DNA of 64,000 bases, taken from the IMG/VR virus record IMGVR_UViG_3300028887_000069, positions 52,898-116,897 of that record, one strand, 5' to 3'. The position numbers and the translations under genes are program-made. The notes under the pieces were generated by a model, which searched no databases, was not told where the DNA came from, and saw only the letters and a list, made by a program, of their open reading frames with translations. This document shows positions 35,549 through 62,611 of the stretch, one piece after another. Origin of the DNA: a virus. Lineage: Duplodnaviria; Heunggongvirae; Uroviricota; Caudoviricetes. Position 1 is the first letter of the stretch, and every line of letters begins with the position of its first letter.

Positions 35549-35857
35549 AGGTCAATGTGTTTTAGTTAATACTTTGTTTTAATTTTACATTTGCAAAGAT
35601 AAGGTTATTTTTTGGATTGTGCAAATTTTTAACATTTTGGGTTTTGCGGATTTTGTATGTGGGCTGTTTCCCTTTAACACTTGCAAATATAACACTTCCA
35701 TTTGGATTGGGCAAGGATTTTAACATTTAATTTTCAGCGAGGGGAAAAGTTTGCGTTAGGAGTGTTAAAAATTTTTCCATATCAATTTAATTTATTACCT
35801 TTGCAAGCGTAAACAAACGAAAACACATTTTATTAATCATTAAAGAAAGGAGACAAT

Positions 35858-36112
35858 ATGAAAGTGAACGAAAACAAAATCAAAGAGTGGAAAGAGATGA
35901 CCGACAATAATCTGCATAGCGAGGTACGCTTGGAGATTGCGGTTTACTTTGGGTTTCACGACTACAAGATGATGTTCAAGCGGTTTGTTGAGAAAGACGG
36001 ACTGACTTGGAGCGAGTATGTGGAGCGGAACCGACTTTCGGAGGCAATGTTTGCACGTATAAAGGGGTTGTATGGCGATGAGGTCGCAAAGGAGATATAC
36101 AATGTATGTTAA
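35858..36112 (+). CDS. Small early protein, 84 aa
   Basis: EP+SD+ORF. Confidence 0.45.
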   Translation: MKVNENKIKEWKEMTDNNLHSEVRLEIAVYFGFHDYKMMFKRFVEKDGLTWSEYVERNRLSEAMFARIKGLYGDEVAKEIYNVC

Positions 36113-36137
36113 ACATAAAAAGAAAGGAGAAAAGACT

Positions 36138-36299
36138 ATGAGAAAGATTTGGGAAATCGTAAAGGGTTTTATAGGTATCGTTTTGGCGGTTTGGCTGTTG
36201 GTTGCGGTCGATAACTACTACGTCAAGAAAACACACAACAAGAGCATATTGAAGATTGTGAAGAAAGAGGTTGTTGAGTTTGTCAAGTGTGCGGTGTAG
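36138..36299 (+). CDS. Small membrane protein, 53 aa
   Basis: SD+ORF; start trimmed to the ATG after the SD. Confidence 0.4.
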   Translation: MRKIWEIVKGFIGIVLAVWLLVAVDNYYVKKTHNKSILKIVKKEVVEFVKCAV

Positions 36300-36393
36300 G
36301 GGAAATAAAATGTTAAAAAATTTGGTGGATTGGGAAAAAAGACTTATCTTTGCAAACGTCAATCAAAGTTAAACTAAAACACAATAAAAGGGA

Positions 36394-36486
36394 ATGAACA
36401 AAGCAAAAAACATTTTTCAAGCGACAACATTTGTATTGTGCATCGCAATCGTCTTGACGGCAACAATCGTTTCGGTAATAACCTAT
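36394..36486 (+). CDS. Hydrophobic peptide, 30 aa (manual call)
   Basis: EP upstream; the ORF is below the track cutoff. Confidence 0.25.
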
Positions 36487-36510
36487 TAAAAAAAGAAAGG
36501 AGACAAAACT

Positions 36511-36669
36511 ATGGCAAAGTATTTTTTCAACATTGAGTACACGGACGGAACGACAAAAAGGGTTGAGGGAAACGACCTATCCGATTTGATGGCAAATCAG
36601 AGGGGTTGGGTGAAAAAGGCAATGAAAGACGGAAAGATTAGCGGAGTCAGCGGTGTTATGCCCTCATAG
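36511..36669 (+). CDS. Small protein, 52 aa (manual call)
   Basis: SD+ORF, with a terminator downstream. Confidence 0.35.
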   Translation: MAKYFFNIEYTDGTTKRVEGNDLSDLMANQRGWVKKAMKDGKISGVSGVMPS

Positions 36670-36699
36670 GAGAAATTGGTTAATAAAAGGTGAATACGA

Positions 36700-36731
36700 C
36701 CTCACGTTGGGAAACGTGGGGTTTCTTTTTT
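36700..36731 (+). terminator. Rho-independent terminator
   Basis: cctcacg-ttgggaaa-cgtgggg followed by a T-tract. Confidence 0.7.
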
Positions 36732-36740
36732 GCCTTTGCT

Positions 36741-36790
36741 TTACATTTGCAAATATAACACTTTTATTTGGACTGTGCAAATTTTTAACA
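36741..36790 (-). repeat. The same promoter cassette in inverted orientation, pointing back toward the terminator of the upstream plus-strand gene
   Basis: The reverse complement of 36741-36790 reads gttaaaaatttgcacagtccaaataaaagtgttatatttgcaaatgtaa. Confidence 0.55.
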
Positions 36791-36875
36791 ATTGAAAATA
36801 AAGTGTTAAAAATTTTGCCATATCAAATTTTCTTCTTACTTTTGCAAGCGTAACAAACAAAGAAAGGAGAAAACT

Positions 36876-37073
36876 ATGAAAATCGTTGAAAAGGATTTAT
36901 ATTCAGTTTTGCTGAAATTACGTGATACACGAAAGCAAAACAACGAACCTGCTGACACAATTCTTGAAGAAATTATTGAGGGGTTTCGCCCTACGGCACA
37001 CGGTTGTGCAAGGGATGCAAGAAAGTATCTGAAAGATAATAATATTGATTATACACTTAAAAGTAACGGTTGA
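36876..37073 (+). CDS. Small early protein, 65 aa
   Basis: EP+SD+ORF. Confidence 0.45.
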   Translation: MKIVEKDLYSVLLKLRDTRKQNNEPADTILEEIIEGFRPTAHGCARDARKYLKDNNIDYTLKSNG

Positions 37074-37169
37074 TTGCGGTTGGAAAAATAAAGTGTTAAA
37101 ATATTTCTCTATATGGAAAAACTTTCTTACTTTTGCAAGTGTAACAAACAAAAAGAAAGGAGCAACATT

Positions 37170-37532
37170 ATGAAAATTATTCACAACGACAGCCACCACT
37201 ACAGCAACAGCAACCCACCGAAGCTGCCCAAAGCCGCCAACAGGACCGTGGCGTACACAAAAGAAATCAAGTATTGCAGCGACTGCCCTATGTGCAAACT
37301 GTCTATGGTGTATTATGACGCTGAGGTGGACCAGGACGTTCAGGACCTATTCTGCACCAAATACGATAAACCAGAGATGGTACACTGGGCCCTCCACTGG
37401 GACGAGATAGCTGCTCGCAACTCCTCACACACTGGCGACGACCTTGTACCAGAGAACTGCCCGCTGATACCAAATGAGTTCAATAGTGAGCCTATTCATG
37501 AACCCAATGATGACCCCAATGGAATACATTAA
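37170..37532 (+). CDS. Small early protein, 120 aa
   Basis: EP+SD+ORF; start trimmed. Confidence 0.45.
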   Translation: MKIIHNDSHHYSNSNPPKLPKAANRTVAYTKEIKYCSDCPMCKLSMVYYDAEVDQDVQDLFCTKYDKPEMVHWALHWDEIAARNSSHTGDDLVPENCPLIPNEFNSEPIHEPNDDPNGIH

Positions 37533-37573
37533 CGAAAAATATTAAGTATTGGGTATGGTGAAAGTGTTAAAAA

Positions 37574-37605
37574 TTTGGTGGATTGAAAAATTAATCTTAC
37601 CTTTG
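37574..37605 (+). promoter_or_regulatory. Representative early promoter (EP): -33 TTTG, 20 nt, -7 TAccTTTG; Bacteroidota sigma-A type
   Basis: The unit gttaaaaatTTGgtggattgaaaaattaatctTAccTTTGcatacgtaa recurs with small variations upstream of about 45 genes or operons between 35.8 and 63 kb. Confidence 0.7.
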
Positions 37606-37640
37606 CATACGTAATCAATCAAAAAAGAAAGGAGAATAAA

Positions 37641-38033
37641 ATGACAAACGAAGAAAAAGCAAAGAATGGGTTAGTCTATGAACTTCACGGGTTGTACGAA
37701 TATGATGGTTTAACAAAAAAAGAGATAGTTAAACTTATAGATTCCACGTTAGACGATGGAGATTTTGAATCAAAGGAGATAACAAAGAAAGAAGTTGTTA
37801 GCAAGGACAAGATATTTGGGCATACTATGACAGAGATAGTTGAATTTCTGTCGAATATGGAGACCAAGTACGGAGTCGGTTGTTTAGAGGAGGAAAGGTA
37901 TTCGTATGAAGATTACGACTTGATATACAAATACAGTACGAAAGAGACTGTAGATGATATAATCACTCGTCTTATGGAAAAGATGACTGTCGTGTGCGAA
38001 AAATACTTAAATGTTAAAAATTTTTCTATGTGA
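37641..38033 (+). CDS. Small early protein, 130 aa
   Basis: EP+SD+ORF. Confidence 0.45.
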   Translation: MTNEEKAKNGLVYELHGLYEYDGLTKKEIVKLIDSTLDDGDFESKEITKKEVVSKDKIFGHTMTEIVEFLSNMETKYGVGCLEEERYSYEDYDLIYKYSTKETVDDIITRLMEKMTVVCEKYLNVKNFSM

Positions 38034-38086
38034 AAACTTTTTCTTACCTTTGCATACGTAATCAATCAAAAAAGAAAGGACAAACA

Positions 38087-38362
38087 ATGACACAACAAGA
38101 GAAAGCAAGAGAAATATACAAAGACAACCTATATGACTGTGAAGTTAGAGGTGTTGTACAAGATGAACAAGAGATTTTGTTTATGCTCGAAAAGATGGCT
38201 CAATGGAAGCAACAGCAAATGATTGAGAAGGCTGTTAAGTGGCTCAAAGATAATGCAGGAACATATCATAGATTTAATGTAAATGAAAACAGATTTTACT
38301 ACAACTATAATATATTGATTGACGATTTCGAAAAAGCAATGGAGGAATGCCTTGCCGACTAA
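38087..38362 (+). CDS. Small early protein, 91 aa
   Basis: EP+SD+ORF; start trimmed. Confidence 0.45.
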   Translation: MTQQEKAREIYKDNLYDCEVRGVVQDEQEILFMLEKMAQWKQQQMIEKAVKWLKDNAGTYHRFNVNENRFYYNYNILIDDFEKAMEECLAD

Positions 38363-38571
38363 TCAACAAGAGTATTAACTAAAAACAATCTGGAATATGA
38401 GAACAAATAGAAAGAAAAAAATGTACAAGTTCATTGAAGGAAAAAAATACCGCATTCTGCGGTCATACTATGACGGTCGCATAATTGGGTACGTTGAATG
38501 TTAAAAATTTGCGTATGCGGAAAAAGTTGCTTATCTTTGCAAACGTAAACGTTAAAAGAAAGGAGAAAACT

Positions 38572-38886
38572 ATGAAAAAAAACTTTCCAACCTACTACAG
38601 CGAAGGATTACGCAATGAAATGCTTGAAATATCAGACAACCGCATACTGTGGAAGATGAATATCCAATCCGATGAAGAATATGAAATCTATCTCGCTGAG
38701 GTGGAAGAATACCGTTCACAACTTGAAGAACACTATCACACGCCTTTCTATCTGTGCGGTCGTAGTGGCAGGCACGTCTGCATCGAGGACACCCCGACAA
38801 ACAGAAGAAACTATCGTCATATATGCAGAAAGGTGGACACAATCCAAAAGGAACTAATTAAAAAACACTCTCACACGGAATGTTAA
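38572..38886 (+). CDS. Small early protein, 104 aa
   Basis: EP+SD+ORF; start trimmed. Confidence 0.45.
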   Translation: MKKNFPTYYSEGLRNEMLEISDNRILWKMNIQSDEEYEIYLAEVEEYRSQLEEHYHTPFYLCGRSGRHVCIEDTPTNRRNYRHICRKVDTIQKELIKKHSHTEC

Positions 38887-38971
38887 AAATTTTGTCAATT
38901 CAAAAAACTTTCTTACCTTTGCAAACGTTAAATCAATAAATAAAATTATTCACTTAAAAAAGGAGGTAAAA

Positions 38972-39181
38972 ATGAAAAAGACATTTGAAGTAAAAGTTAA
39001 AGTAGTCCTTGACTGCGGTGAAAACGTAACTGACGAGAACGCCAAAAAATTTGCCGAAGAGGTGGTTGGCACTTGTATGGCTTGGGGAGAGGGGGAAGCC
39101 GAAGATGTTGTGGAAACTTGCATAGACGAACTCGGTGACGAGGAGGAGTTTGACTGCGGTTGGGAAGGATATGAAATGTAA
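38972..39181 (+). CDS. Small acidic protein, 69 aa
   Basis: EP+SD+ORF. Confidence 0.45.
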   Translation: MKKTFEVKVKVVLDCGENVTDENAKKFAEEVVGTCMAWGEGEAEDVVETCIDELGDEEEFDCGWEGYEM

Positions 39182-39313
39182 CCCACAAAGGGGGGGGGGG
39201 AAGTAAACTAATGTGTAACCTTAAAACATCAGAGCCGATGAGAACACGCGACCGACCTTAAATAGAGATTAGTAATTTATTTCTGCATAATTAATATTTC
39301 ACATTCATAGGGA

Positions 39314-39350
39314 AGACTGCCTTGCTTGGGCGGTCTTTCTTTTTTTATTT
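39314..39350 (+). terminator. Rho-independent terminator
   Basis: agactgcc-ttgcttg-ggcggtct followed by ttctttttttatttg. Confidence 0.6.
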
Positions 39351-39351
39351 G

Positions 39352-39400
39352 TTAAAAATTTGCGTAATCCAAAAAAAGGTGTTATATTTGCAAATGTTAA
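39352..39400 (+). repeat. Conserved ~50-bp promoter cassette (GTTAAAAATTTGCnnnnTCCAAAaATAAGTGTTATATTTGCAAATGTtAA), direct orientation; one of about 14 copies
   Basis: Direct copies near 39352, 41221, 44230, 49089, 53564, 55466, 57811 and 62405. Inverted copies near 35672, 36741, 40524, 42097, 47010 and 51001. Confidence 0.6.
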
Positions 39401-39523
39401 GAGGGGGAGAGGGCGACACGACAAGAATGATGGGTGCAAGAAAAAAAGTGTTAAAAATTTCTCCATATCAAAAAACTTTCTTACTTTTGCAAATGTAACA
39501 AACAAAAAAGAAAGGAGTAAGAT

Positions 39524-39745
39524 ATGACGGACAGAGACAAGGAATTTCTCAGAAAACTGAAAGAGCTTATGGAGGAGTACAACGCATCGGTTGGTTTCAC
39601 TTGCAGTGATGGCTCGGACACCTATGGTCTCTATGACGACCACCTCGAAATTTGTATCAATGAAGGCGGTTTCAAGGATAGAGTTGTGTTTGAATCCGAT
39701 GGTTGGTGGATTGAATCAGGCGACATCCGTAAGGTTATTGAATAG
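39524..39745 (+). CDS. Small early protein, 73 aa
   Basis: EP+SD+ORF. Confidence 0.45.
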   Translation: MTDRDKEFLRKLKELMEEYNASVGFTCSDGSDTYGLYDDHLEICINEGGFKDRVVFESDGWWIESGDIRKVIE

Positions 39746-39834
39746 AGTGTTAAAAATTTTGGTATGTGGAAAAACTTTCTTACCTTTGCACACGTAAACA
39801 ACAAACGGAGTATTCACTAAAACATATTGGCACT

Positions 39835-40164
39835 ATGGAAATAAGCGACATTAAAATCAAGGGTAGCAACGTAAACGTGATTTACAGCGGAACGTACTAT
39901 TTCATTAGCAACTACTATGGCATTCTCGCTATTGCCGAGAGAACTGACGAGGATAGGGAGAAAGGCACGGTAGAGATGAGAATACGCATAGGAAACGCAC
40001 GTACATTGGGCGGACGTATGCAGACCCACTCAATTCTGCCCTCAATCAAGAAATACCTCACCAAGAGCGAAAACCGCTTTCTTGAAAAGAAAGTGTCCTA
40101 CAACGTGGTGGAGGAGGATTTGAACAAGGTTTACCTCACGATAGAAGAACATAAGTGCAACTAA
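39835..40164 (+). CDS. Small early protein, 109 aa
   Basis: EP+ORF; SD weak. Confidence 0.4.
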   Translation: MEISDIKIKGSNVNVIYSGTYYFISNYYGILAIAERTDEDREKGTVEMRIRIGNARTLGGRMQTHSILPSIKKYLTKSENRFLEKKVSYNVVEEDLNKVYLTIEEHKCN

Positions 40165-40184
40165 AAAAGAAAGGAGAAAACACT

Positions 40185-40454
40185 ATGAGAGTAATGACAC
40201 ACAACGACAACGCAATTCGTATGATTGACGCTTTCAAGCACTACAATCAGTTTATGACCGAGATAATTGAGGACAGCGACACGTTCAAGACGATTAGAGG
40301 GGTTGAGGGAAAGATGTACTGCGGAACATTCACCGCAAAGGTGTATGTGGGTACGAAACCGATAGGCACGTACAAGTTTGATTGCAGGCATTGGGCGGAC
40401 GTACTGACGCTATCCGATAGGGAGATGAAACCGAGAATAACAAAGGTGAAATAA
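40185..40454 (+). CDS. Small early protein, 89 aa
   Basis: SD+ORF, with a terminator downstream. Confidence 0.45.
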   Translation: MRVMTHNDNAIRMIDAFKHYNQFMTEIIEDSDTFKTIRGVEGKMYCGTFTAKVYVGTKPIGTYKFDCRHWADVLTLSDREMKPRITKVK

Positions 40455-40479
40455 GGGTTAATGGTTAATAATGGTTTTT

Positions 40480-40512
40480 GCCCTCACGCTGAAAATGCGT
40501 GGGGGTTTTTCT
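40480..40512 (+). terminator. Rho-independent terminator
   Basis: ccctcacgc-tgaaaat-gcgtggggg followed by a T-tract. Confidence 0.65.
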
Positions 40513-40674
40513 TTGCCCTTGCTTTACATTTGCAAATATAACACTTTTATTTGGAACACGCAAATTTTTAACACTTGAAATTAAATGTTAAAACGCTTTG
40601 TCGGTTCAAAAAACTTTCATACCTTTGCAAGCGTAAACAATCAAAGTTATTAATCATTAAAGAAAGGAGAAACT

Positions 40675-40914
40675 ATGAAAAAAGCACTTGTTCTATTATT
40701 CAGCGTGGACGAGTTCACTCTCGACCAATTAGACGAAATGAACGACAACGAGCGTTTCAAACTTGCAGTTAAAGAAGTTGGCGAGGGCAATGCGGACATT
40801 TACACACTTGCAGATTTTCTCGCAAGTATCAACAATGGCGAAGATTGCCTATCGGAGTGGTTCTGCTATCAGTACTATGCGGAGTTGAAGGAGTACGAAA
40901 AATGGTACAAGTAA
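40675..40914 (+). CDS. Small acidic protein, 79 aa
   Basis: EP+SD+ORF. Confidence 0.45.
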   Translation: MKKALVLLFSVDEFTLDQLDEMNDNERFKLAVKEVGEGNADIYTLADFLASINNGEDCLSEWFCYQYYAELKEYEKWYK

Positions 40915-40947
40915 ACAAAGTTATTCACATTAAAAAAGGAGGTAAAT

Positions 40948-41160
40948 ATGAAAAGACTTGCAGTTATTGACCGTGCGGCAAAAACGTTGTTCGTTGAGGA
41001 CGTGAACGATGAGGACATTGAGAAATGCGGTGGGATTGAGGACTATGTTATTGAAAACTACACCTTTGAGGGGGATTTTGCAGTGTCGGAGATTGTGGAT
41101 GCGGAGTATATGACAACGGACGAGAAAACGCCTATGGAGATTGTTTTTGAGGACTTGTAG
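40948..41160 (+). CDS. Small acidic protein, 70 aa
   Basis: SD+ORF. Confidence 0.45.
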   Translation: MKRLAVIDRAAKTLFVEDVNDEDIEKCGGIEDYVIENYTFEGDFAVSEIVDAEYMTTDEKTPMEIVFEDL

Positions 41161-41458
41161 GCGGTACACACACAACGGAAATTGTCCGTCTGCCCTATCA
41201 AAGGGTGGACGGATTTTTTTGTTAAAAATTTGGTCAATCCAAAAATAAGTGTTATATTTGCAAATGTGAAAGGGGGCAAGGGAGTGCTATGCCCTATTGG
41301 GAAAGTGTTAAAAACTTGCATAATTGAAATAGTTTTCGTATGGGGAAAATTAAATGTTAAAAATTTCTCTATGTCAATTTCATTTCTTACCTTTGCAAAT
41401 GTAATCAAGAAACAAAAACAATTAACCTAATATTAACCTAAAAAGAAAGGAACACATT

Positions 41459-41983
41459 ATGGAAAACACAACAATCAACACAATCAGCAACTTAAATAAA
41501 GGCATTTTCGGAGTAGAGGTCGTAACCTCAACTGAACCCGCTATGAGAAAGACCAACAACCCCTTTATCGGCCGTGTCCGCAAGGTCAGCACCTACCGCA
41601 ACGCAGTGCTTGGAGTGGACTATCAGAACGCAGTCAATGGTCGCTTAGACCGCAAGGGTGAGACCGCAGACTACAAGTCGGAAGCACCGAAAGGCAAGAA
41701 GTGGTACAACGCTTTCTTCTATCAGTCGCTGAACGATGAGAACGTTTTTTACCTCAAAATCGGTATGAGAAAGAACACCACCGTTGAGAGCGAGTACTAT
41801 GTGGACGGTCGCATCGCCACCGCAAGCGAGGTTGAGGAAATCAAGTCGTTTCTCACCTCCCACTCCTCAAGCGTAAAGAAACAAGTGAACGCAGGACTGA
41901 ACGAGGAAGAGCAGTATCGCATAGTCGCTCCGAAGTTGGAGAACGTGGTGAGCGTAAGACTTGGCGGTCGCACAATCGCATAA
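41459..41983 (+). CDS. Early protein, 174 aa
   Basis: EP+SD+ORF, with a terminator downstream. Confidence 0.45.
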   Translation: MENTTINTISNLNKGIFGVEVVTSTEPAMRKTNNPFIGRVRKVSTYRNAVLGVDYQNAVNGRLDRKGETADYKSEAPKGKKWYNAFFYQSLNDENVFYLKIGMRKNTTVESEYYVDGRIATASEVEEIKSFLTSHSSSVKKQVNAGLNEEEQYRIVAPKLENVVSVRLGGRTIA

Positions 41984-42005
41984 GACAAAGGACACCGAGA
42001 CAAAA

Positions 42006-42040
42006 AGAGGGAGTACAAAAACGTTCCCTCTTTTTTTGTT
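42006..42040 (+). terminator. Rho-independent terminator
   Basis: agagggag-tacaaaaacgtt-ccctct followed by T7. Confidence 0.65.
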
Positions 42041-42058
42041 TTGTGTGGTATATAAATA

Positions 42059-42074
42059 AGACACGATTGTGTCT
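42059..42074 (+). repeat. AGACACGATTGTGTCT inverted-repeat motif (6-bp arms, GATT centre); 8 copies, all in the same orientation
   Basis: Copies at 42059, 43414, 50329, 56587, 58559, 60871, 62118 and 63726; the flanks often extend to AATAAGACACGATTGTGTCTTA. Confidence 0.6.
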
Positions 42075-42255
42075 TAGGGGTATGGTTGTTGCCCCTTAAC
42101 ATTTGCAAATATAACACTTTTATTTGGTTCGTGCAAATTTTTAACACTTTCACTTGAACTTTTTTTCCACTTAAAAATAAATTGTTAAAAATTTGTGTAT
42201 GTCAGTTTTATTTCTTACCTTTGCACACGTAACAAACAAAAAGAAAGGAGCAATT

Positions 42256-42588
42256 ATGAAAAAAGTATATTATGGAAGTCTCGACAACGAAATTAAAGAT
42301 GTTGTGCTGACCGACAAAAAGAAACTTGACGGAAAGGAAGGCTATGGCTTCGCTTGTTGGCAATATTGGGTTGATAGGGAAAGAATAGGTCACGACCCTT
42401 GGGGTTTTCCTATCTATGGAAATTCTATAGAGTGCTATGCAGCCATTGGCGATTATTTTGAAAGCAAGGCGGAACGTGACCGTCAAGCCGAAATGATACC
42501 GAAAATCACAGGTCTTTGCGGAGAAAGGAAATACGGTGACACGGTGTCGTATTTCACTTTCACTTGGAAATACGAGGGCAAACGTTAA
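42256..42588 (+). CDS. Small early protein, 110 aa
   Basis: EP+SD+ORF; start trimmed. Confidence 0.45.
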   Translation: MKKVYYGSLDNEIKDVVLTDKKKLDGKEGYGFACWQYWVDRERIGHDPWGFPIYGNSIECYAAIGDYFESKAERDRQAEMIPKITGLCGERKYGDTVSYFTFTWKYEGKR

Positions 42589-42672
42589 AAATTTGTGTAT
42601 GTCAGTTTTATTTCTTACCTTTGCACACGTAAACAACAAACAAAGTATAACAATTAAAAAAAGGAGTACACT

Positions 42673-43359
42673 ATGAACTACAATGAAATCTTGCAAAACG
42701 AATATAATAAAGCAGTAAAAGATGTTGCCGATGCGAAATTCAACTCCACATTTCATCGTGGAATATTCGGTTTTATGAACGGCAAAGGGTGGACGGTTAC
42801 GAGTTTTGGCGATAGCAGTATATATTTCTATGGTGCAAGTCGCTTGTTCCGCTTTTACGCTCATCATTTCACAACCGACAAGGCGTGGACTTTGAGCGAG
42901 AGAGTGCAAATTAATTTTGAAAATTACTCGTGGAAAGAGGTGTATTCGTACCCATATACGAGGAATTGCAGTATCACTGATGTTAAAGTTTCCGAGTTTG
43001 ACAAGTTTTTCAAAAATGTAGCAGATAAAATAAGTAAAGAGCCGAAACTCAAACCTTATCGCACATACAGAGAGAGGGAACGAGAGTTTGATAAATATAT
43101 AGTCAGCGAAACATATTACGGATATGGCGCACCTGAACCAATTAGAAAGGAATTTGACAACTTGGAGGATGCAAAGAAATTTGCGTATGAGTATGCGGAT
43201 GAGAAATGTAAGAGGGGAAAGGAAAGAAATGATAGCACAAGCCGTTACTATTTCTCTTCACCGATTGATGCAACCAAAGAATGCCCCTCAAAAATATACG
43301 CTTGGAAATACTATGACTATAACGAATACCCATATTATGTGTATATTGAGGGTTGTTAA
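42673..43359 (+). CDS. Early protein, 228 aa
   Basis: EP+SD+ORF. Confidence 0.45.
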   Translation: MNYNEILQNEYNKAVKDVADAKFNSTFHRGIFGFMNGKGWTVTSFGDSSIYFYGASRLFRFYAHHFTTDKAWTLSERVQINFENYSWKEVYSYPYTRNCSITDVKVSEFDKFFKNVADKISKEPKLKPYRTYREREREFDKYIVSETYYGYGAPEPIRKEFDNLEDAKKFAYEYADEKCKRGKERNDSTSRYYFSSPIDATKECPSKIYAWKYYDYNEYPYYVYIEGC

Positions 43360-44162: not shown

Positions 44163-44195
44163 TTTTCATAGGGATAATAGGTTAATGGTTGGAAA

Positions 44196-54820: not shown

Positions 54821-54982
54821 ATGAAAAAGAACACGCACACAATCGTTGAAACCGCCTATGGCGAGGTTATGGTGAAATCCAATGGCGAATGCTACATTGG
54901 AGACAACTTTGACGACTACATAGGGGAAATCAACCCAAAACGCAACCTTGAAAGGCAGATTGAAAAACTGCTTGGCGAATAA
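54821..54982 (+). CDS. Small protein, 53 aa
   Basis: EP+SD+ORF; start trimmed. Confidence 0.4.
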   Translation: MKKNTHTIVETAYGEVMVKSNGECYIGDNFDDYIGEINPKRNLERQIEKLLGE

Positions 54983-55025
54983 ACAATCAATCAAAGTATA
55001 AACACATTAAAGAAAGGAGACAACT

Positions 55026-55397: not shown

Positions 55398-55428
55398 CAC
55401 TTTATTTCATAACATTTATTGCAAAGTA

Positions 55429-55466
55429 ACCCCTACGCTGAAAGGCGTGGGGGTCTTCGTTTTTTG
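55429..55466 (+). terminator. Rho-independent terminator
   Basis: cccctacgc-tgaaag-gcgtggggg followed by a T-tract. Confidence 0.6.
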
Positions 55467-55653
55467 TTAAAAATTTGCGCAATCCAAAAATAAGTGTTAT
55501 ATTTGCAAATGTTAAAGGGAGACAAACACACAACACCCTCATTTCATATAGATTGAAATTAAATGTTAAAATGCTTTGTCAGTTCAAAAATTAATCTTAC
55601 CTTTGCAAACGTAATCAAACAAAGATATTAACCTATTAAAGAAAGGAGACATT

Positions 55654-55914
55654 ATGAAAAAATACATAATAAGCGGTGATAAGGGAAACATTGAAAATTT
55701 TATGGATAACGCTAATTGGATTGGTTTTTTCAATAGTCTCCATTGCGTTATGGCCTGCGAACGCATAGATGACAACAGACTTCTTCTGTCTTTCAGTTTG
55801 CCCCGTCATTATATGCTTGACATTCCTACCGAAAAGGAAAAGACGTTAGCCGAAATGATTGAAAAAGAATGCAAGTCTTTCAATGTGACACCAAAAGAGG
55901 AGAAAGAATGTTAA
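55654..55914 (+). CDS. Small early protein, 86 aa
   Basis: EP+SD+ORF. Confidence 0.45.
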   Translation: MKKYIISGDKGNIENFMDNANWIGFFNSLHCVMACERIDDNRLLLSFSLPRHYMLDIPTEKEKTLAEMIEKECKSFNVTPKEEKEC

Positions 55915-55999
55915 AAATTTGCAAGGTTCAAATATTTTGCTTACCTTTGCATACGTAAACAAACAAAGATATTAAACCTATTAAAGAAAGGAGAACATT

Positions 56000-56311
56000 A
56001 TGGTAAAAATCACAATTATTGCAGATGACTACTATGTAGCACAGAACCTCTACGACATCGCCTCTATGGTGGAAAACAACGACATCCTTGATGAGGTCTA
56101 TGACGGAAAAAAGAACAAAATTGAGATTGCAGAGTACAACTGCACGATTGAGCGTGTGGACGAGACCGACAAACCTACCTACACTTGCCCTCATTGCGGA
56201 GAGCCGCTTGAACAAGGCGACTATGAGTACGACTACGAAAGCGGTGAACTGCGAGTGGCACATTGCCCCAACTGCGGTTGCGAGGGAGAGAAAATAGATA
56301 CTAACGACTAA
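56000..56311 (+). CDS. Small zinc-ribbon protein, 103 aa
   Basis: EP+SD+ORF; CPHCG...CPNCGC. Confidence 0.45.
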   Translation: MVKITIIADDYYVAQNLYDIASMVENNDILDEVYDGKKNKIEIAEYNCTIERVDETDKPTYTCPHCGEPLEQGDYEYDYESGELRVAHCPNCGCEGEKIDTND

Positions 56312-56332
56312 AAAAAGAAAGGAGAACAGACT

Positions 56333-56584
56333 ATGTACGAAAGAGAATACAAAATCAAGGACATCGAGTTCAAGAACAACGGAAAGGTTAAGGACAGAGA
56401 GGTGATAGTCACCCTTGACAACGACACCGAAATCCATATCACATCCTGCTATGAGAGTTGGCAACAGTGGGGAGGAACAAGAGACGAGTTGGGGACAACG
56501 GTGGACGTTGCAGAGTATGCAAACGATTGGTTGCACGGCATTGGGGAAATCCCTTGTGAAGTGTACGACTTCATAGACGAATAA
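56333..56584 (+). CDS. Small early protein, 83 aa
   Basis: SD+ORF. Confidence 0.45.
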   Translation: MYEREYKIKDIEFKNNGKVKDREVIVTLDNDTEIHITSCYESWQQWGGTRDELGTTVDVAEYANDWLHGIGEIPCEVYDFIDE

Positions 56585-56631
56585 TAAGACACGATTGTGT
56601 CTTGAACAATCTAAAAAGAAAGGAGAACATT

Positions 56632-56898
56632 ATGGATAAGAGATATATCATAAAACAAAGTATGTGGCGTTACCTACGCGACTGCCACTGCCTTACGATT
56701 GAGGGCAAGGAATGTGACGAGGAGGTCGATTGCCTTGAACTGATGGGCAACAAACTCTACTATGACGAGGGCAACGAAGAGATAAAGGTAATAAACGGTC
56801 TTGACGGTCGTGAATACTTTTGGAGCGAACTCAACGAGGACGAGCAGAACCAACTCATTGACGCTTTCGAGGACTACTACACCACGTACAAAGATTAA
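56632..56898 (+). CDS. Small early protein, 88 aa
   Basis: SD+ORF; start trimmed. Confidence 0.45.
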   Translation: MDKRYIIKQSMWRYLRDCHCLTIEGKECDEEVDCLELMGNKLYYDEGNEEIKVINGLDGREYFWSELNEDEQNQLIDAFEDYYTTYKD

Positions 56899-56990
56899 AT
56901 GTTAAAAATTTGTGTACGTGAAAAATCTTTCTTACCTTTGCATACGTCAATTCAAACAAACAATAACCTATTAAAGAAAGGAGAAAAACT

Positions 56991-57149
56991 ATGGAAGACA
57001 TTAAAAAAGAACTTGAAGAAATCAAACGTACCCTCAACGAGGAGGCGAGAATTTGCGAGACTATGCTCAACGGCAACGAGTGTTGGACTGAGGTGGACTG
57101 CAACGTTATCATTGACCTTGCAAAGAGACTAAACAAAATCAATCTTTAA
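56991..57149 (+). CDS. Small protein, 52 aa (manual call)
   Basis: EP+SD+ORF. Confidence 0.35.
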   Translation: MEDIKKELEEIKRTLNEEARICETMLNGNECWTEVDCNVIIDLAKRLNKINL

Positions 57150-57175
57150 CCCATAGAAAAGAAAGGAAACGCACA

Positions 57176-57748
57176 ATGAGTACAACAATGACAAAATCAA
57201 CCCCTTGGTATAACCCATTTACCTTGACTTATCCGAATTCACTCTATGGAGTTGAAATACACAACATTGTCTTCTACAAGGACGGAAAGGTCGTTGCTAC
57301 AACAAAGTGGTTCACGAACAACAACGAGTTCAGACTTGTCGTACTGCCCTTTGACGTGAAACGTGCCAATAAACTTAACCTTGACCGCAAAGACGCTTTC
57401 ACTATCAAACCCCAAAATGGTTGGTGCGATGGTTACGACCTCTACATACACGCTGACCTTATACCCTCTCTTAAAACGCTTGGTCGCATTGATGGACGTA
57501 AGACTTGGTATAACACCGAGACGCACGAAACCTTTGAAATTACACTGCACGGACAAAAAGACGGTGACACCGAGATAAAAGACCACACGCTCCGTTTCGA
57601 CTGCAACTATGAGTTCACCGACACGGACGAATACAAGAAATGCGTCAAACTCTGCAAGGATATGAAAGAGACTTGCGGTGCTGACATAAGCGAGTACCGA
57701 ATGCACGAAATACTGCAACACTACAACATCACGAAGAAGAGAAAGTAA
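57176..57748 (+). CDS. Early protein, 190 aa
   Basis: SD+ORF, with a terminator downstream. Confidence 0.45.
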   Translation: MSTTMTKSTPWYNPFTLTYPNSLYGVEIHNIVFYKDGKVVATTKWFTNNNEFRLVVLPFDVKRANKLNLDRKDAFTIKPQNGWCDGYDLYIHADLIPSLKTLGRIDGRKTWYNTETHETFEITLHGQKDGDTEIKDHTLRFDCNYEFTDTDEYKKCVKLCKDMKETCGADISEYRMHEILQHYNITKKRK

Positions 57749-57772
57749 CCCATAGTTCACTCCTTTTATATG

Positions 57773-57808
57773 TGCCGTCTGCCCTTGATTGGGCGGGCGG
57801 TTTTTTAT
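57773..57808 (+). terminator. Rho-independent terminator
   Basis: GC-rich imperfect hairpin ccgtctgccc...gggcgggcgg followed by T6. Confidence 0.55.
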
Positions 57809-57946
57809 TTGTTAAAAATTTGGCCGTTCCAAATATAATCGTTATATTTGCAAACGTTAAAGAGCAAAAAACCACTTAACCCTTGCATACGCAAAGATTA
57901 TTTTTTTTCATATAGATTAAAATAAATTGTTAAAAATTTGGTCCAT

Positions 57947-57968
57947 TCAAAAATTTATCTTACCTTTG
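57947..57968 (+). promoter_or_regulatory. Early promoter of the same family
   Basis: aaaaaTTTGgtccattcaaaaatttatctTAccTTTGcaaatgtcaa. Confidence 0.65.
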
Positions 57969-58017
57969 CAAATGTCAATTAAGATAAAACATTAACCTAT
58001 AAAAGAAAGGAGACAAT

Positions 58018-58494
58018 ATGAACTACAAGAAATTCTTTGACCGCACCTGTTACCACGTTGAAACCATCGACGGCAAGAAGTACGTACACATTGACGGTTA
58101 CGTGTACAACAACGGAGACGGAAATATGCTGACACAGTTTATCGGTGCCACCATATCCGTTGAGGAACTGCAAAAGACAAACGACCGTTTTGAGGACGTT
58201 GAAGACCTTTTTATGCGAACCTACGATGAAGTGTCCGACAAGGAGATTGAGACCTATTTCCGCAACATCAAGGAGTTCCCTATGGATATGGTGACAGAGG
58301 AAATCCCAAACGGTTGGTACGTGGATAAGAATTGGCACTCTGTGGCACAGTCGCTCTGCACTGACCTTGACAATGACGTGAACGATGTCGCAAGGCGTCT
58401 CAAGGCGTATGCGGAAGACAACAACCTCACGATAGAGGAAGTGGACGATATGTGTTGGGAAAACTCCTCCAATATGTTTAACGAGATAATGTAA
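58018..58494 (+). CDS. Early protein, 158 aa
   Basis: EP+SD+ORF. Confidence 0.45.
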   Translation: MNYKKFFDRTCYHVETIDGKKYVHIDGYVYNNGDGNMLTQFIGATISVEELQKTNDRFEDVEDLFMRTYDEVSDKEIETYFRNIKEFPMDMVTEEIPNGWYVDKNWHSVAQSLCTDLDNDVNDVARRLKAYAEDNNLTIEEVDDMCWENSSNMFNEIM

Positions 58495-58616
58495 GTTTTT
58501 TGTTAAAACGCTTGCACATATCAAAAATTAATCTTACCTTTGCAAGTGTAATCAAATAAGACACGATTGTGTCCTACATAAACAAAGTATAACAATCTAA
58601 AAGAAAGGAGAACACT

Positions 58617-59189
58617 ATGGCAAACATCGCAAACACACTCTATCGTATCGTTGGAGACGATGCAATCCTCACAAAGGTTGAAAATTCATTAAAGGTTGGA
58701 ATGTCACTGCAAGAGGTGTTGTCCTCACTCGGTTGCAAGGACTTCAAAGGTTACGCAAAGGGTGAAATCGTATGGATTGAGAATGACCCCGAGGGTCTTT
58801 GGATTGACCTACACGCTGACACTGCGTGGAACGAGAACCCCGACTTTATCAACGCTCTCAAAAAGGCGATAGACTGCATCGTGGGGTATCACTGCGAGGA
58901 GCCTGGTTGCGACTACTACGCAACAAACATTTCAGACGCAATTTGGGGCGAGTACGTTGCCGATGGCATAGACGGAACAACCGAGTACTACAAGACCTTT
59001 GAGGAAATGAAAGCGAACATTGTGGAAAGTCTCGCACTTGAACTTGCCTTTGAGGAGAATGACGGTCACGATGACGCATTCAAGACCTTTGACGGTATGA
59101 AAGATTGGTTGGAGAACTACTACACCAAACACAAGGACTACGACCCAATCACAATCCATCACTTTGACATTATTGACCCAATCATATAA
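58617..59189 (+). CDS. Acidic early protein, 190 aa
   Basis: EP+SD+ORF; the hairpin motif sits in the 5'UTR. Confidence 0.45.
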   Translation: MANIANTLYRIVGDDAILTKVENSLKVGMSLQEVLSSLGCKDFKGYAKGEIVWIENDPEGLWIDLHADTAWNENPDFINALKKAIDCIVGYHCEEPGCDYYATNISDAIWGEYVADGIDGTTEYYKTFEEMKANIVESLALELAFEENDGHDDAFKTFDGMKDWLENYYTKHKDYDPITIHHFDIIDPII

Positions 59190-59270
59190 ATTGTTAAAAA
59201 ATTTGGTCAATCCAAAAATTAATCTTACCTTTGCACACGTAACAAACAAATTAAAAGAAAGGAGACAACT

Positions 59271-59609
59271 ATGAACAAGAGAAAATTCTTTTTCGCACCT
59301 GCCTACTATGAATGGCACTTGACCGATGAGAGAGGAAACCTCATTCATGTTATGGCAGACCCTGCCGAGGAGACGTGCCACGAGGACGGAACACCTTGTA
59401 CCTTTGAAGAAGTGGAGGATATGTGTGCAAACGACCTTGAATGTGCCGACCGCACGTATGAAGAGGGCGAGGGTTACAACGGACATTATCTTGAAGACCC
59501 ACTCACAGAGGAGGAAACCGAGGAAGCGGCAAATGTTATGGCAACCGCGCTCTACAACTACTACTGCGTGGAGAACGAGGAGACCGATGCAAATTCACTT
59601 GAGTTCTAA
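59271..59609 (+). CDS. Acidic early protein, 112 aa
   Basis: EP+SD+ORF. Confidence 0.45.
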   Translation: MNKRKFFFAPAYYEWHLTDERGNLIHVMADPAEETCHEDGTPCTFEEVEDMCANDLECADRTYEEGEGYNGHYLEDPLTEEETEEAANVMATALYNYYCVENEETDANSLEF

Positions 59610-59684
59610 ATGTTAAAAATTTGCGTATGTCAAAAAAACTTCTTACCTTTGCATACGTAACAAATTAAAAGAAAGGAGAATACT

Positions 59685-59987
59685 ATGAAAATGAAAGGTT
59701 ATTATTGGACTGATGACGACACAATGTGTGCGTTCTTCGGTGATGTGCATAAAGAAAAAAACCTCACAATCGCCCGTGAGAGTGAATATCACTCCGAAGA
59801 TGACGAGGTGGTGATTATAGATGTCTTTTGGGATGACGATGACAATATGACCGAGGGTCATTCCATCAATCCCTCTACCCTCAAGTACTATGAGAAGAAA
59901 TGTAAAATTGACCCCAACATCACCCGTGAGGAATATGACGAGATTGTCACACTTACAAGGGCAAAGGCAAAAGAAACCACTGTTTAA
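59685..59987 (+). CDS. Small early protein, 100 aa
   Basis: EP+SD+ORF. Confidence 0.45.
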   Translation: MKMKGYYWTDDDTMCAFFGDVHKEKNLTIARESEYHSEDDEVVIIDVFWDDDDNMTEGHSINPSTLKYYEKKCKIDPNITREEYDEIVTLTRAKAKETTV

Positions 59988-60002
59988 CTTTAAGGTAGCA
60001 CT

Positions 60003-60197
60003 ATGACAAACATTGAACTTATTAGAACGGAACTTAATGAGACAAGAACCCTCATTGACACTCTCTGCGACAAAATCAATACAATGATGTCAATGTCAAA
60101 CGACTGTCTCGACTTCAGAGACGCAAAGGACAAACTGTCCGAGGTGGAAACAGAACTCGTTGAGAAGTACAACGAATACGCAACACGTAACAACTAA
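60003..60197 (+). CDS. Small coiled-coil protein, 64 aa
   Basis: ORF; weak SD. Confidence 0.35.
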   Translation: MTNIELIRTELNETRTLIDTLCDKINTMMSMSNDCLDFRDAKDKLSEVETELVEKYNEYATRNN

Positions 60198-60221
60198 CAT
60201 AAAAAGAAAGGAGACAAAACT

Positions 60222-60602
60222 ATGAATAAAACAAATCTGTCAAAAGAGGAAATCAATGTATTGACCGAGAAAGCAAACGACCTTGTGAGAAAGGAAACCG
60301 AAATCATTAATGCGGCACAAAAAGGTATTATATCCCTGCTTTCCAAGTGCGAAAACAACGAAATCACCTTGCCCGTCGGCAATGATGATGACCTTTCAGT
60401 CTTTGACTGCGACTGCAACGAATACCGTTCCATAGACAAGGTGAAACTTGTGAAATACAAAAGTGCCGTTGATTGCAATGGCAATAGCGACAATACCTTT
60501 GACGTTCCTGTCCTTGTCTCAAATGATATACCGTATCAGATGTACGAGACATCGGAAACACCCATACAGATACTGTCACGTATGGTAAACGAACTTGATT
60601 AA
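60222..60602 (+). CDS. Small early protein, 126 aa
   Basis: SD+ORF. Confidence 0.45.
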   Translation: MNKTNLSKEEINVLTEKANDLVRKETEIINAAQKGIISLLSKCENNEITLPVGNDDDLSVFDCDCNEYRSIDKVKLVKYKSAVDCNGNSDNTFDVPVLVSNDIPYQMYETSETPIQILSRMVNELD

Positions 60603-60629
60603 GTAACCAACTAAAAACAATCAATCTAT

Positions 60630-60827
60630 ATGGAAACAAAGAGAGAATACAAGATAGCGTTCAACCGCTCACGCAAGACCTATACAATCCGTCAGTACGA
60701 CAACGGCAAACTCGTCACAAAGTACCGCACCTACCCTCAAGGCAAGGACTACTCGGAGAATTGGACACAGAACGACATAGCGAACTATTTGCGTTATGCA
60801 AACGGAGACTATTTCATCGTAAAATAA
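60630..60827 (+). CDS. Small protein, 65 aa
   Basis: ORF only. Confidence 0.35.
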   Translation: METKREYKIAFNRSRKTYTIRQYDNGKLVTKYRTYPQGKDYSENWTQNDIANYLRYANGDYFIVK

Positions 60828-60850
60828 ACCATTAAAAAACATTACACACT

Positions 60851-61066
60851 ATGGAACAGAACAACACATTAGACACGATTGTGTCTCCTGCACAGATAAC
60901 GGACGTGGACACCCTCTGCCATTGCGTAGGATGTGACCTCAACACACAGGAGAAAGCACAGACAAGGATTGAGATTATCCTTAACTACCTCATGGAATGG
61001 AACGTCATCAAGGACTATGACGCTGACAGACTTGATTGGATATTCAGCGACGAGGAAACCTATTAG
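60851..61066 (+). CDS. Small protein, 71 aa
   Basis: ORF; contains the AGACACGATTGTGTCT motif in frame (DTIVS). Confidence 0.35.
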   Translation: MEQNNTLDTIVSPAQITDVDTLCHCVGCDLNTQEKAQTRIEIILNYLMEWNVIKDYDADRLDWIFSDEETY

Positions 61067-61173
61067 AAAAAAAAATTCATATTAATTGTTAAAAAATTTG
61101 GTAGATTCAAAAAAACTTCTTACCTTTGCATACGTCAATTAACAAAAAGGTTTAACTAAAACACATTATCACT

Positions 61174-62310
61174 ATGGAACAGAAAAACGACAATTTCATG
61201 CAGAGCGTTATGAACGCAATCAACGGAAACAACACTATGGTATCGGTCAATACCGATGCGAAACCCCTCGCCTGGAACGGAGTGATGGGCTGCAAGTCCT
61301 TCAGCACTCCCGTCACCGTCTCCGAGGCCGCAGAGGAGGTTGGGGCGAACTATGAGGTCAAGAAGCACCACATGGTCGCTATCACTGACGAACTCTATGA
61401 CGCCATCATCAACGGCACTCCCATCACGGAGGCAACGTTTACAAAGGGCTGCATCGTCTCATCCCACATGGCAACCATGCGTGAGGACAACGGACATATC
61501 CTTGGTTGTGTCGGCAAGGACTACGGCGTGATTCAGAACGCCAAGGCTCTCGAGTTCCTTAACATGATTACAAGCGGTGAGATTGACGGCACTGAGAAGG
61601 CAGTCATCGAGACCGCAGGCATACTCGATGGTGGCGCTCGTTTCTACATGACCGCCAAAATGCCCGAGAACATAACAATCCCAGGTGACCGTTTCGGTAT
61701 CGAGGACTACATCGTCTTCACCACCTCGCATGACGGAACGAATGCGGTTCAGGCATTCTTCACCCCGATTCGTGTGGTCTGCAAGAACACCCTCAACTAC
61801 GCCATGAAGAGCGCCAAGAACAAACTCGTCTTCCGCCACACCTCCCGCGTCAACGAGCGCATGGATTGGAACAACGAGGAGAACCGCAGAATGGCTGTGC
61901 AGACCCTGCAGATGCACAAACACTTCAAGGAGGCATTCGTCAACGACCTCATCGCCATGCAGAACATCAAGATAAGCGGTGACACCGACATCGCCAAATT
62001 CTGTGGCAAACTCTTCGCAGACGAGAAGGAACTCAACCTGCTTGCCAAGGCGAACTACAACGCCGACTCCGTTGAGGAACTGTCCACCCGCAAAAAGAAC
62101 CTCATCCGTGCCATGCAAGACACGATTGTGTCCGGAGTGGGTCAGTCCGAACATCAGAACACGGGTCTGTGGCTGCTTAACGGTGTGACCTCATACTTCC
62201 AGAACACGAAGCCGTGGAAGACCGAGGAGGACAAGTTCGACGGCATCATGGGCGGTGACGCTTCACGCAAGGTTCAGAAAGCACGTGAACTCATCTACGA
62301 AATGGTATAG
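61174..62310 (+). CDS. DUF932-like (phage/plasmid-related) protein, 378 aa, encoded in a GC-richer segment
   Basis: N-terminal ...AKPLAWNGVMG...TVSEAAEEVGANYEVKK... pattern recalls the DUF932/TIGR03299 family. EP upstream; strong terminator downstream. Confidence 0.4.
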   Translation: MEQKNDNFMQSVMNAINGNNTMVSVNTDAKPLAWNGVMGCKSFSTPVTVSEAAEEVGANYEVKKHHMVAITDELYDAIINGTPITEATFTKGCIVSSHMATMREDNGHILGCVGKDYGVIQNAKALEFLNMITSGEIDGTEKAVIETAGILDGGARFYMTAKMPENITIPGDRFGIEDYIVFTTSHDGTNAVQAFFTPIRVVCKNTLNYAMKSAKNKLVFRHTSRVNERMDWNNEENRRMAVQTLQMHKHFKEAFVNDLIAMQNIKISGDTDIAKFCGKLFADEKELNLLAKANYNADSVEELSTRKKNLIRAMQDTIVSGVGQSEHQNTGLWLLNGVTSYFQNTKPWKTEEDKFDGIMGGDASRKVQKARELIYEMV

Positions 62311-62342
62311 TACTTCCCCTTCATAGTTATCCCTTTCACGGA

Positions 62343-62390
62343 AAGACGGACTGCACAACCAAGTGCAAGTCCGTCTTTCTTTTATGTATG
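62343..62390 (+). terminator. Strong rho-independent terminator after the DUF932-like gene
   Basis: agacggactgcac-aaccaa-gtgcaagtccgtct followed by a T-tract. Confidence 0.7.
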
Positions 62391-62611
62391 TGTTTGGAAT
62401 GAATTGTTAAAAATTTGCATATTCCAAATAAAAGCGTTATATTTGCAAGCGTTAAAGCGGATGGAATATACCCCTGTCATTCCATCCTGTATGTTAATTA
62501 ACATTTTTTATGAAATTACATTTGGTCAGTCCATACATTCTTCATACCTTTGCAAATGTAAACAAAGGACAGACAACATTATCGTATAACCACTTAAAAA
62601 AGGAGAATATC

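Follow-up and report, generated by a model that had tools for sequence, protein, structure and literature searches.

Promoter-like cassettes facing either way at the terminators of a small-gene array in a large phage genome

We describe a family of promoter-like cassettes, here called class B, in a 64,000-nucleotide stretch of a tailed-phage genome (the window; positions 52,898 to 116,897 of IMG/VR record IMGVR_UViG_3300028887_000069). Class B is a discrete family, separate from the 42 gene-proximal promoters (class A) of the same small-gene array, and its copies stand one-to-one with the terminators of that array, pointing either with the genes (direct copies) or back through the terminator (inverted copies). 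The terminator and class B layout is conserved in related phages in both orientations and is gained and lost as a unit. The explanation we favor, with about even confidence, is that terminator and class B together make up a composite boundary cassette with class B as its promoter half; direct copies would restart transcription, inverted copies would damp the upstream unit by antisense transcription, and the cassettes would also be used as recombination sites. All positions are those of the window, and the copy labels in Table 1 denote the same class B copies.

The initial annotation of this DNA had reported a cassette of about 50 bp with some 14 copies in both orientations. A profile search indeed gave 14 copies of a cassette of about 57 bp, 8 on the plus strand and 6 on the minus strand, at coordinates that agree with the annotated ones to within a few bases. 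All of them fall in one 27-kb block (35.67 to 62.46 kb), and the search found none in the first 35 kb of the window. With the profile hidden Markov model built from the copies, class B scored 51.9 to 61.2 bits and the next-best match, a class A promoter, scored 29.6 bits; this gap indicates a discrete family with exactly 14 members in the window. The consensus given in the initial annotation, searched with up to 3 mismatches, matched 6 sites against 0 expected in shuffled sequence. What that annotation overlooked was that class B copies and terminators are paired one to one, whichever way the cassette faces, and that class B is separate from class A.

The class B consensus is TGTTAAAAATTTGC-N4-TCCAAAwAwAAGTGTTATATTTGCAAATGTTAAAGGGG. 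The upstream half, GTTAAAAATTTG, is common to class B and class A, down to the same variants. Two blocks are peculiar to class B: the spacer contains TCCAAAwAwAAGTGT, and the start site has GTTAAAGGGG, which is the G-rich leader box that had been noted after the −7 box and that proved to be real. Read directly from the sequence, the ends of the cassette are loosely palindromic (TTAAAAATTTGC ... GCAAATGTTAA).

Both promoter boxes had been recognized in the cassette, and both are there. The −7 box is TATATTTG in all 14 copies, each of which has TAnnTTTG with no G at either n position. For the −33 box TTTG predominates (9 copies), with CTTG in another 4 and TTTC in the remaining one. This box is placed 20 nucleotides (nt) ahead of the TA of the −7 element, a spacing identical to that of the 42 class A promoters. 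A −33 TTTG with a −7 TAnnTTTG is the Bacteroidota promoter type, and the −7 element of the Bacteroidota housekeeping sigma factor is TAHHTTTG, in which T-12, A-11, T-8, T-7, T-6 and G-5 are nearly invariant (PMC6847099). The window copies agree with this type in box sequence and in spacing, G-5 is present in all 14, and they are probably active promoters. A scan of the window for the sigma-70 consensus gave 55 matches against 44 ± 7 in shuffles, which is no enrichment. The nearest cultured relatives, judged by the helicase (37% identity), are phages of Bacteroides thetaiotaomicron; together with the Bacteroidota-type promoters throughout, this points to a Bacteroidota host. The phage genome is roughly 365 kb, one of the array proteins being carried on a 364,702-bp sequence.

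A promoter on the opposite strand within class B was considered and rejected: some direct copies contain a TAnnTTTG-like word, but the nearest TTTG is only 13 nt away, too close. Sequence subfamilies corresponding to orientation gave a weak signal (permutation P = 0.06 in the window and 0.03 in the related contig L066), and the alternating order of plus and minus copies was not significant (10 runs against 7.9 expected, z about 1.2).

The coupling to terminators is complete across the array. Every one of the 13 strong plus-strand terminators between 35.7 and 62.5 kb has a class B copy downstream of it, in one orientation or the other. The distance from the T-run to the cassette is at most about 15 nt in 12 of these cases and about 20 nt at 62.4 kb. 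Direct copies start at the T-run (62.4 kb excepted), and inverted copies have their G-rich start-site box flush with it. Repeat finding recovered both arrangements as families of 5 copies each: D16, of 108 nt, joins a terminator to a direct class B copy, and D17, of 96 nt, joins one to an inverted copy. The initial annotation placed six inverted copies after terminators. Five do lie there, but no terminator precedes the copy at 35.69 kb, which sits at a point of divergence. A class A promoter on the minus strand, with its −7 box at 35601, stands in tandem with this copy and serves a minus-strand gene of 46 codons whose start is at 35549. The 35.69-kb copy is therefore a direct copy for that gene, and the truly inverted copies number five rather than six. 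The terminator hairpins themselves belong to two repeated sequence families, CCYCACG...CGTGGGG and GTCTGCCC...GGGCGGAC, and both precede direct as well as inverted class B copies.

Four of the five terminators that face inverted copies are unidirectional, with a reverse hairpin 5 to 8 kcal/mol weaker and only 1 to 3 U in the following 9 nt. The exception is terminator 42002, which works both ways. The predicted start of the five inverted copies lies about 20 to 25 nt from the hairpin base. Since the reverse hairpins are weak and followed by few U residues, a minus-strand RNA would run into the 3′ end of the upstream gene, and antisense transcription from the inverted copies across the terminator is probable. 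The alternative product proposed initially, a tiny terminator-only RNA, does not fit the set, as only the copy at 42.1 kb has reverse-direction terminator-like hairpins downstream of it (42076-42057, then 42035-42002).

The array into which these boundaries are set consists of about 60 small plus-strand genes between 35.7 and 62.5 kb, almost all without a Pfam or PHROG match, and it is probably early and accessory. Each class A promoter is followed by the Shine-Dalgarno sequence AAAGAAAGGAG and then by a small gene. The units share one layout: a class B copy facing either way, a class A promoter, small genes of which most have a class A promoter of their own, and an intrinsic terminator. Direct class B copies precede the next class A promoter and would form tandem promoters with it, as had been noted; the gap is 32 to 78 nt, wider than the 40 to 60 nt given initially. 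All 42 class A promoters in the plus-strand array point with their genes, against 8 of the 13 class B copies (Fisher exact P of about 4e-4 by our own arithmetic), so that freedom of orientation is specific to class B.

We then asked what becomes of the layout in other phages. Relatives were found through homologues of two array proteins and the contigs encoding them, and one more (L065) through a looser class B pattern in IMG/VR. Pattern scans for class B in IMG/VR and in Joint Genome Institute (JGI) metagenomes otherwise returned only unrelated single host-type promoters; the class A pattern in IMG/VR hit 40 unrelated Bacteroidota phage contigs with one match apiece; and in a collection of cultured phages nothing came close to the array and no element resembled class B. 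One conserved host-type promoter, TTTGGCTTTTCCAAAGAAAAGCGTTATATTTGCA, is found with the same flanks in four metagenomes (unrelated contigs L042, L043, L047 and L049) and shares the blocks CCAAA and GTTATATTTGCA with class B. Contigs with more distant homologues of the 174-amino-acid and 246-amino-acid proteins (L054, L058, L059 and L068 to L072) contain neither class A nor class B promoters, which suggests that the system is confined to one phage lineage.

Within that lineage the layout persists. In two close relatives (L051 and L052, 87 to 95% nucleotide identity), the inverted copy 51018 and the direct copies 53597 and 55498 occupy the same places in the same orientation. Two others (L073 and L074, 94% protein identity) keep a convergent pair of one direct and one inverted class B copy around the gene of the 174-amino-acid protein and lack a module consisting of the inverted copy 40540, a class A promoter, two genes and the terminator at 41184. 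The IMG/VR relative L065 is a mosaic in which the modules are ordered differently. Farther away, L066 (a JGI contig of 9.7 kb, 71 to 79% amino acid identity) carries 8 class B copies, half of them direct and half inverted; 7 of these adjoin terminators, and the remaining one is at a divergence point. The two genes common to L066 and the window keep the orientation of the neighboring class B copy, although the order of units differs, and the orthologue (71% amino acid identity) of the gene before terminator 40480 is likewise followed by a terminator and then an inverted copy. In L061, at about 46% identity, there are three inverted copies; the two with upstream sequence on the contig directly follow terminators, and one of the three separates two genes that are neighbors in the window. 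At the six window sites seen in more than one contig, class B orientation was identical across L050 to L052, L065, L066, L073 and L074. L066 also carries a tRNA-Lys(UUU) gene within its small-gene array (4974-5047), followed directly by a terminator and an inverted class B copy; no tRNA gene was found in the window.

The differences between strains have their junctions in the cassettes. Three gene modules of the window are missing from L051, and the junctions of these gaps fall in class A promoters or ribosome-binding sites. The direct copy 49122 is missing from both L051 and L052: the terminator is joined there to a hybrid promoter with a class B-type upstream junction and a class A core. Such a hybrid is the product expected from a deletion between the GTTAAAAATTTG words shared by the two classes, and the missing copy was apparently deleted when class B recombined with its class A neighbor.

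It could be argued from this that class B is a neutral by-product, a diverged promoter copy whose inverted versions are functionless leftovers of recombination among promoter repeats. The array recombines heavily at repeats, the upstream half of the cassette is common to both classes, and one class B copy was lost in just this way. We nevertheless regard the idea as improbable. The inverted layout recurs at orthologous sites down to 71 to 79% protein identity and again in the lineage at about 46%, none of the 42 class A promoters is inverted, and class B stays a tight, separate and strictly terminator-adjacent family.

A mobile element resembling a miniature inverted-repeat transposable element, or an inverton-type promoter switch, is highly improbable, even with loosely palindromic ends, two orientations and one presence/absence difference in its favor. 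The suggestion of a mobile mini-element in the initial annotation failed on several counts. There are no target-site duplications (the longest shared word averaged 3.07 nt in a copy's own flanks and 2.94 nt in mismatched flanks), and all copies occupy one region and one context, 13 abutting a terminator and 1 at a divergence point, with uniform neighbors and no copies elsewhere in the window. The empty site is a class B/class A hybrid promoter and not a clean excision, and orientation at the six comparable sites is identical in every independent assembly recovered. Only about 24 bp separate the palindromic ends. Known invertible promoters lie on segments far longer than that. Among the larger open reading frames scanned in the window there was no recombinase.

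The reading of class B as the promoter half of a boundary cassette accounts for these observations as follows. One cassette would stand at every transcription-unit border of the small-gene array. Class B would be read by a host-type RNA polymerase through its −33 TTTG and −7 TAnnTTTG boxes, and its class-specific parts suggest a strength, a timing or an extra factor unlike that of class A. From direct copies, transcription would restart right past the terminator, in tandem with class A. An inverted copy and a unidirectional terminator would together make a natural "terminator plus antisense promoter" module: polymerase starting at the inverted copy would cross the terminator backwards into the 3′ end of the upstream unit, collide with incoming polymerases and produce antisense RNA, so that the upstream unit would be damped and the boundary tightened. 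That antisense transcription has this damping or insulating effect is a tentative proposal, held with less confidence than the transcription itself; it carries forward the antisense or insulator role suggested initially, which remains the best reading of the inverted copies given that four of their five terminators are predicted to act in one direction. Being repeats of about 100 bp, the cassettes would also serve as recombination sites for shuffling modules between related phages.

Several points weigh against this explanation. The loss of direct copy 49122 from a close relative without obvious consequence indicates that individual copies are dispensable. An orientation ratio close to 50:50, with flush contact to the terminator both ways, fits an orientation-independent role at least equally well. 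In the lineage of L066 and L061, A replaces the nearly invariant G-5 in 11 of 11 class B copies (TATATTTAC; TATATTTA), and class A promoters there keep the G; such copies may be weak promoters, may not be productive host promoters or may be read by another factor. Finally, promoter activity and its direction, the antisense transcription and the effect of that transcription are all predictions from sequence alone.

The orientation ratio, the flush contact and the change at G-5 favor a different role, in which class B is a dedicated, promoter-derived boundary element that works regardless of orientation, a landing pad holding either a stable, poorly escaping RNA polymerase or a coevolving phage DNA-binding factor at terminators and thereby forming a roadblock that insulates modules, with any RNA incidental. 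The one-to-one relation to terminators, with the cassette edge touching the T-run in both orientations, would suit it, as would the near-equal orientations in two lineages and the class-specific blocks (TCCAAA..AAGTGT and GTTAAAGGG) that are kept across lineages outside the known sigma contacts. The change from G-5 to A, at a position nearly invariant in host promoters (PMC6847099), would in that case be a sign that binding with no productive initiation has been selected, or that the phage has turned to a specificity factor of its own. We think this role unlikely: both host boxes are at consensus and correctly spaced in 14 of 14 window copies, beyond the needs of a simple binding site; orientation at orthologous sites is conserved instead of drifting; and no candidate binding protein was identified.

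The window does encode a sigma-70-family protein (17805-18821, plus strand; Pfam Sigma70_r2, 3.9e-14; PHROG 351, "RNA polymerase sigma factor," 2.3e-25), and class B could on that account be a second temporal promoter class helped by a phage sigma factor or activator, with direct copies prolonging expression and inverted copies shutting off early units. Its discreteness and the lineage-specific change in its −7 box would be in keeping with a coevolving factor and site. Tandem early and middle promoters are well known from phage T4. Class B keeps the host −33 and −7 boxes, though, and no copy precedes the replication or repair genes at 1 to 35 kb, where promoters of a phage sigma factor would be expected, and this role appears quite unlikely. 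The sigma factor matches RpoS/RpoD models over regions 2 to 4, and its own promoter (about 17742-17780) is of the host type, with the −7 box TAATTTTG. Directly upstream of its gene lies one for a TnpB-like protein (16015-17712, plus strand; Cas12f1-like TNB domain; PHROG transposase). The left 35 kb of the window also encodes a ClpB-like ATPase, a UvrD-type helicase, an NAD-dependent ligase, a D12 methyltransferase and a dNMP kinase.

Class B was further considered as a small-RNA gene and as a source of small peptides, and neither was retained. Rfam had no match in the window at gathering thresholds, and folding of the 75 nt past each predicted class B start gave no shared structure; copies 42113 and 51018 stood out, with a signal that comes from the neighboring terminator hairpins. 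Apart from the G-rich box, the class B leaders vary. Inspection by eye past that box showed no consistent start codons or reading frames.

The closest parallel is with the promoter-early stem-loops (PeSLs) of T4-like phages, which unite a terminator with an early promoter, lie in hyperplastic regions and allow modules to be shuffled (Arbiol et al. 2010, PMC2839356; Comeau et al. 2014, PMC4122927). PeSLs resemble class B cassettes in being intergenic elements of about 100 bp that combine a terminator stem-loop with a host-type early promoter (a strong one in PeSLs), in being repeated many times in a region of small genes without known homologues, and in containing the junctions of insertions, deletions and replacements between related phages. 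They differ in having no sequence homology to the present cassettes and in using sigma-70 −35/−10 promoters in place of the Bacteroidota −33/−7 type; moreover, two promoter classes occur here, the terminator-linked one in both orientations, and inverted promoters are absent from the portions of the PeSL accounts considered here. Flanking PeSLs also recombine into mini-circles. Given this lack of homology, the different promoter type and the absence of the cassette from the cultured phages, we regard class B cassettes as PeSL analogues and not as members. What is new here is a set of PeSL-like boundary cassettes with a terminator-locked, putative promoter class able to face either way.

For the inverted copies, the nearest counterpart is an engineered Escherichia coli part in which a unidirectional terminator is followed by an antisense promoter; colliding polymerases and antisense RNA repress the gene upstream of it, to a degree proportional to the strength of the promoter (PMC4731013). 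The five inverted copies, four with unidirectional terminators, share with that part (Brophy & Voigt 2016) a promoter pointing back through the terminator. Unlike it, they form a repeated, conserved family and not a single locus, the cassette occurs also in the forward orientation, and repression of the upstream unit is a prediction. Phage lambda oop RNA, antisense to the 3′ end of cII, is a natural precedent. Antisense transcripts often begin a short way past a terminator, and their initiation can be linked to termination through polymerase retained on the DNA (PMC6978322). Secondary initiation of this kind (Harden et al. 2020, PMC6978322; Kang et al. 2020, PMC6978380) likewise involves a promoter within a few tens of bases of a terminator in either orientation, and a polymerase sliding after termination could restart at such a promoter, sense or antisense. 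That work concerns E. coli polymerase and weak, poorly conserved antisense promoters, whereas class B is strongly conserved, and we take it as a lead only. Bacteroides invertons resemble class B in having Bacteroidota-type promoters in both orientations, to which the loosely palindromic ends of class B may be compared; they differ in that class B is far too short, shows no orientation differences at six sites, has no recombinase found nearby and presents its two orientations as separate fixed copies instead of one switching locus.

If the boundary-cassette explanation is right, a giant phage of Bacteroidota-type hosts has independently reached a T4-like solution in which cassettes both regulate and shuffle accessory genes, and its second promoter class adds direction as a free design variable. 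The inverted copies would then represent "terminator plus antisense promoter" parts that occur in nature as a family and are maintained by evolution, a layout so far characterized mainly as a synthetic-biology device and at scattered single loci. The roughly 55 compact, strongly conserved Bacteroidota promoter and terminator sequences would also be candidate genetic parts for gut Bacteroidota. The features are collected in Table 1.

Table 1. Class B cassettes, terminators, class A promoters and palindrome sites in the window
Feature	Position	Strand	Copy label	Remarks
Class B	35669..35724	-	35691	55.4 bits; at transcription divergence; divergent from plus-strand class A promoter at 35796
Class B, inverted	36738..36790	-		55.1 bits; faces back to terminator 36698
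Class B, direct	39350..39406	+		begins at terminator T-run; class A −7 box 99 nt downstream, at 39482
Class B, inverted	40520..40573	-	40540	profile match
Class B, direct	41220..41276	+	41253	upstream of 174-amino-acid gene 41459-41983; kept in L066, L073, L074
Class B, inverted	42091..42146	-	42113	kept in L066, L073, L074
Class B, direct	44230..44286	+		profile match
Class B, inverted	47003..47059	-		profile match
Class B, direct	49090..49145	+	49122	absent from matching site in related strain L051
Class B, inverted	50995..51051	-	51018	same place and orientation in L050, L051, L052
Class B, direct	53564..53619	+	53597	kept in L051, L052
Class B, direct	55465..55521	+	55498	best consensus match, 61.2 bits; kept in L051, L052
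Class B, direct	57810..57865	+		kept with its terminator in IMG/VR relative L065
Class B, direct	62405..62460	+		last copy in window
Intrinsic terminator	36698..36723	+		11-bp stem, then TCTTTTTTG; dG −15.6 on plus RNA, −9.7 on minus RNA; 3 U in 9 nt after reverse hairpin; one direction only
Intrinsic terminator	39309..39341	+		scan
Intrinsic terminator	40480..40506	+		one direction only
Intrinsic terminator	41184..41214	+		scan
Bidirectional terminator	42002..42035	+		A-run, hairpin, T-run
Intrinsic terminator	44191..44222	+		scan
Intrinsic terminator	46967..46992	+		one direction only; hairpin identical to 36698
Intrinsic terminator	49054..49079	+		scan
Intrinsic terminator	50956..50985	+		one direction only
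Intrinsic terminator	53529..53555	+		scan
Intrinsic terminator	55429..55454	+		scan
Intrinsic terminator	57774..57801	+		scan
Terminator-like hairpin, one bulge	62345..62375	+		GACGGACTGCAC...GTGCAAGTCCGTC, then TTTCTTTTAT; read from sequence, missed by automatic scans
Terminator families, as listed	36698-36723, 40480-40506, 44191-44222, 46967-46992, 49054-49079, 50956-50985, 53529-53555, 55429-55454 versus 39309-39341, 41184-41214, 57774-57801, 62345-62375			
Class A array, 42 promoters	35760..61170	+		GTTAAAAATTTG-N20-TACCTTTGCAnACGTAA; repeat finding and motif scan
Class A −7 boxes first after a class B copy	36837, 39482, 40620, 41388, 42216, 44375, 47133, 49211, 51123, 53691, 55598, 57961			
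AGACACGATTGTGTCT sites	42059-42074, 43414-43429, 50329-50344, 56587-56602, 58559-58574, 60871-60886, 62118-62133, 63726-63741			

The class A promoters have features of their own. Their −7 region (e.g., 52037-52058 and 43383-43404) contains a near-perfect 18-bp palindrome, TTACCTTTGCAAACGTAA, with 16 of 18 self-complementary positions, which could double as an operator through which a dimeric phage regulator shuts off all of these promoters together. Between class B copy 41253 and the class A promoter at 41388 lies a decayed class A-like copy, GTGTTAAAAACTTGCATAATTGAAATAGTTTTCGTATGGGG, that has no −7 box (41295-41345) and is conserved in L073 (about 830 to 880).

The strong Shine-Dalgarno sequence of the array is found 5 to 9 nt before the start codon of nearly every gene from 35858 to 62310 (e.g., 35845-35857, 49240-49252 and 55641-55653). 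Bacteroidota mRNAs are reported to be without Shine-Dalgarno sequences (PMC6847099), and its occurrence together with Bacteroidota-type promoters may mean that the phage recruits ribosomes in an unusual way.

A 16-nt palindrome, AGACACGATTGTGTCT, occurs 8 times in the window against 0.12 expected, with its GATT loop in the plus orientation in all 8, and recurs in relatives (L051 at about 1155, L061 at about 2772 and L066 at about 4255). Most copies lie just past a stop codon or within a 5′ leader. The probable role of the palindrome is that of an RNA hairpin, as a processing or stability signal, or else of an operator for a dimeric protein. Finally, the gene at 47191-47988 contains five to six tandem 102-nt repeats (47400-48011), which correspond to WG-containing beta repeats behind a DUF7666 domain.

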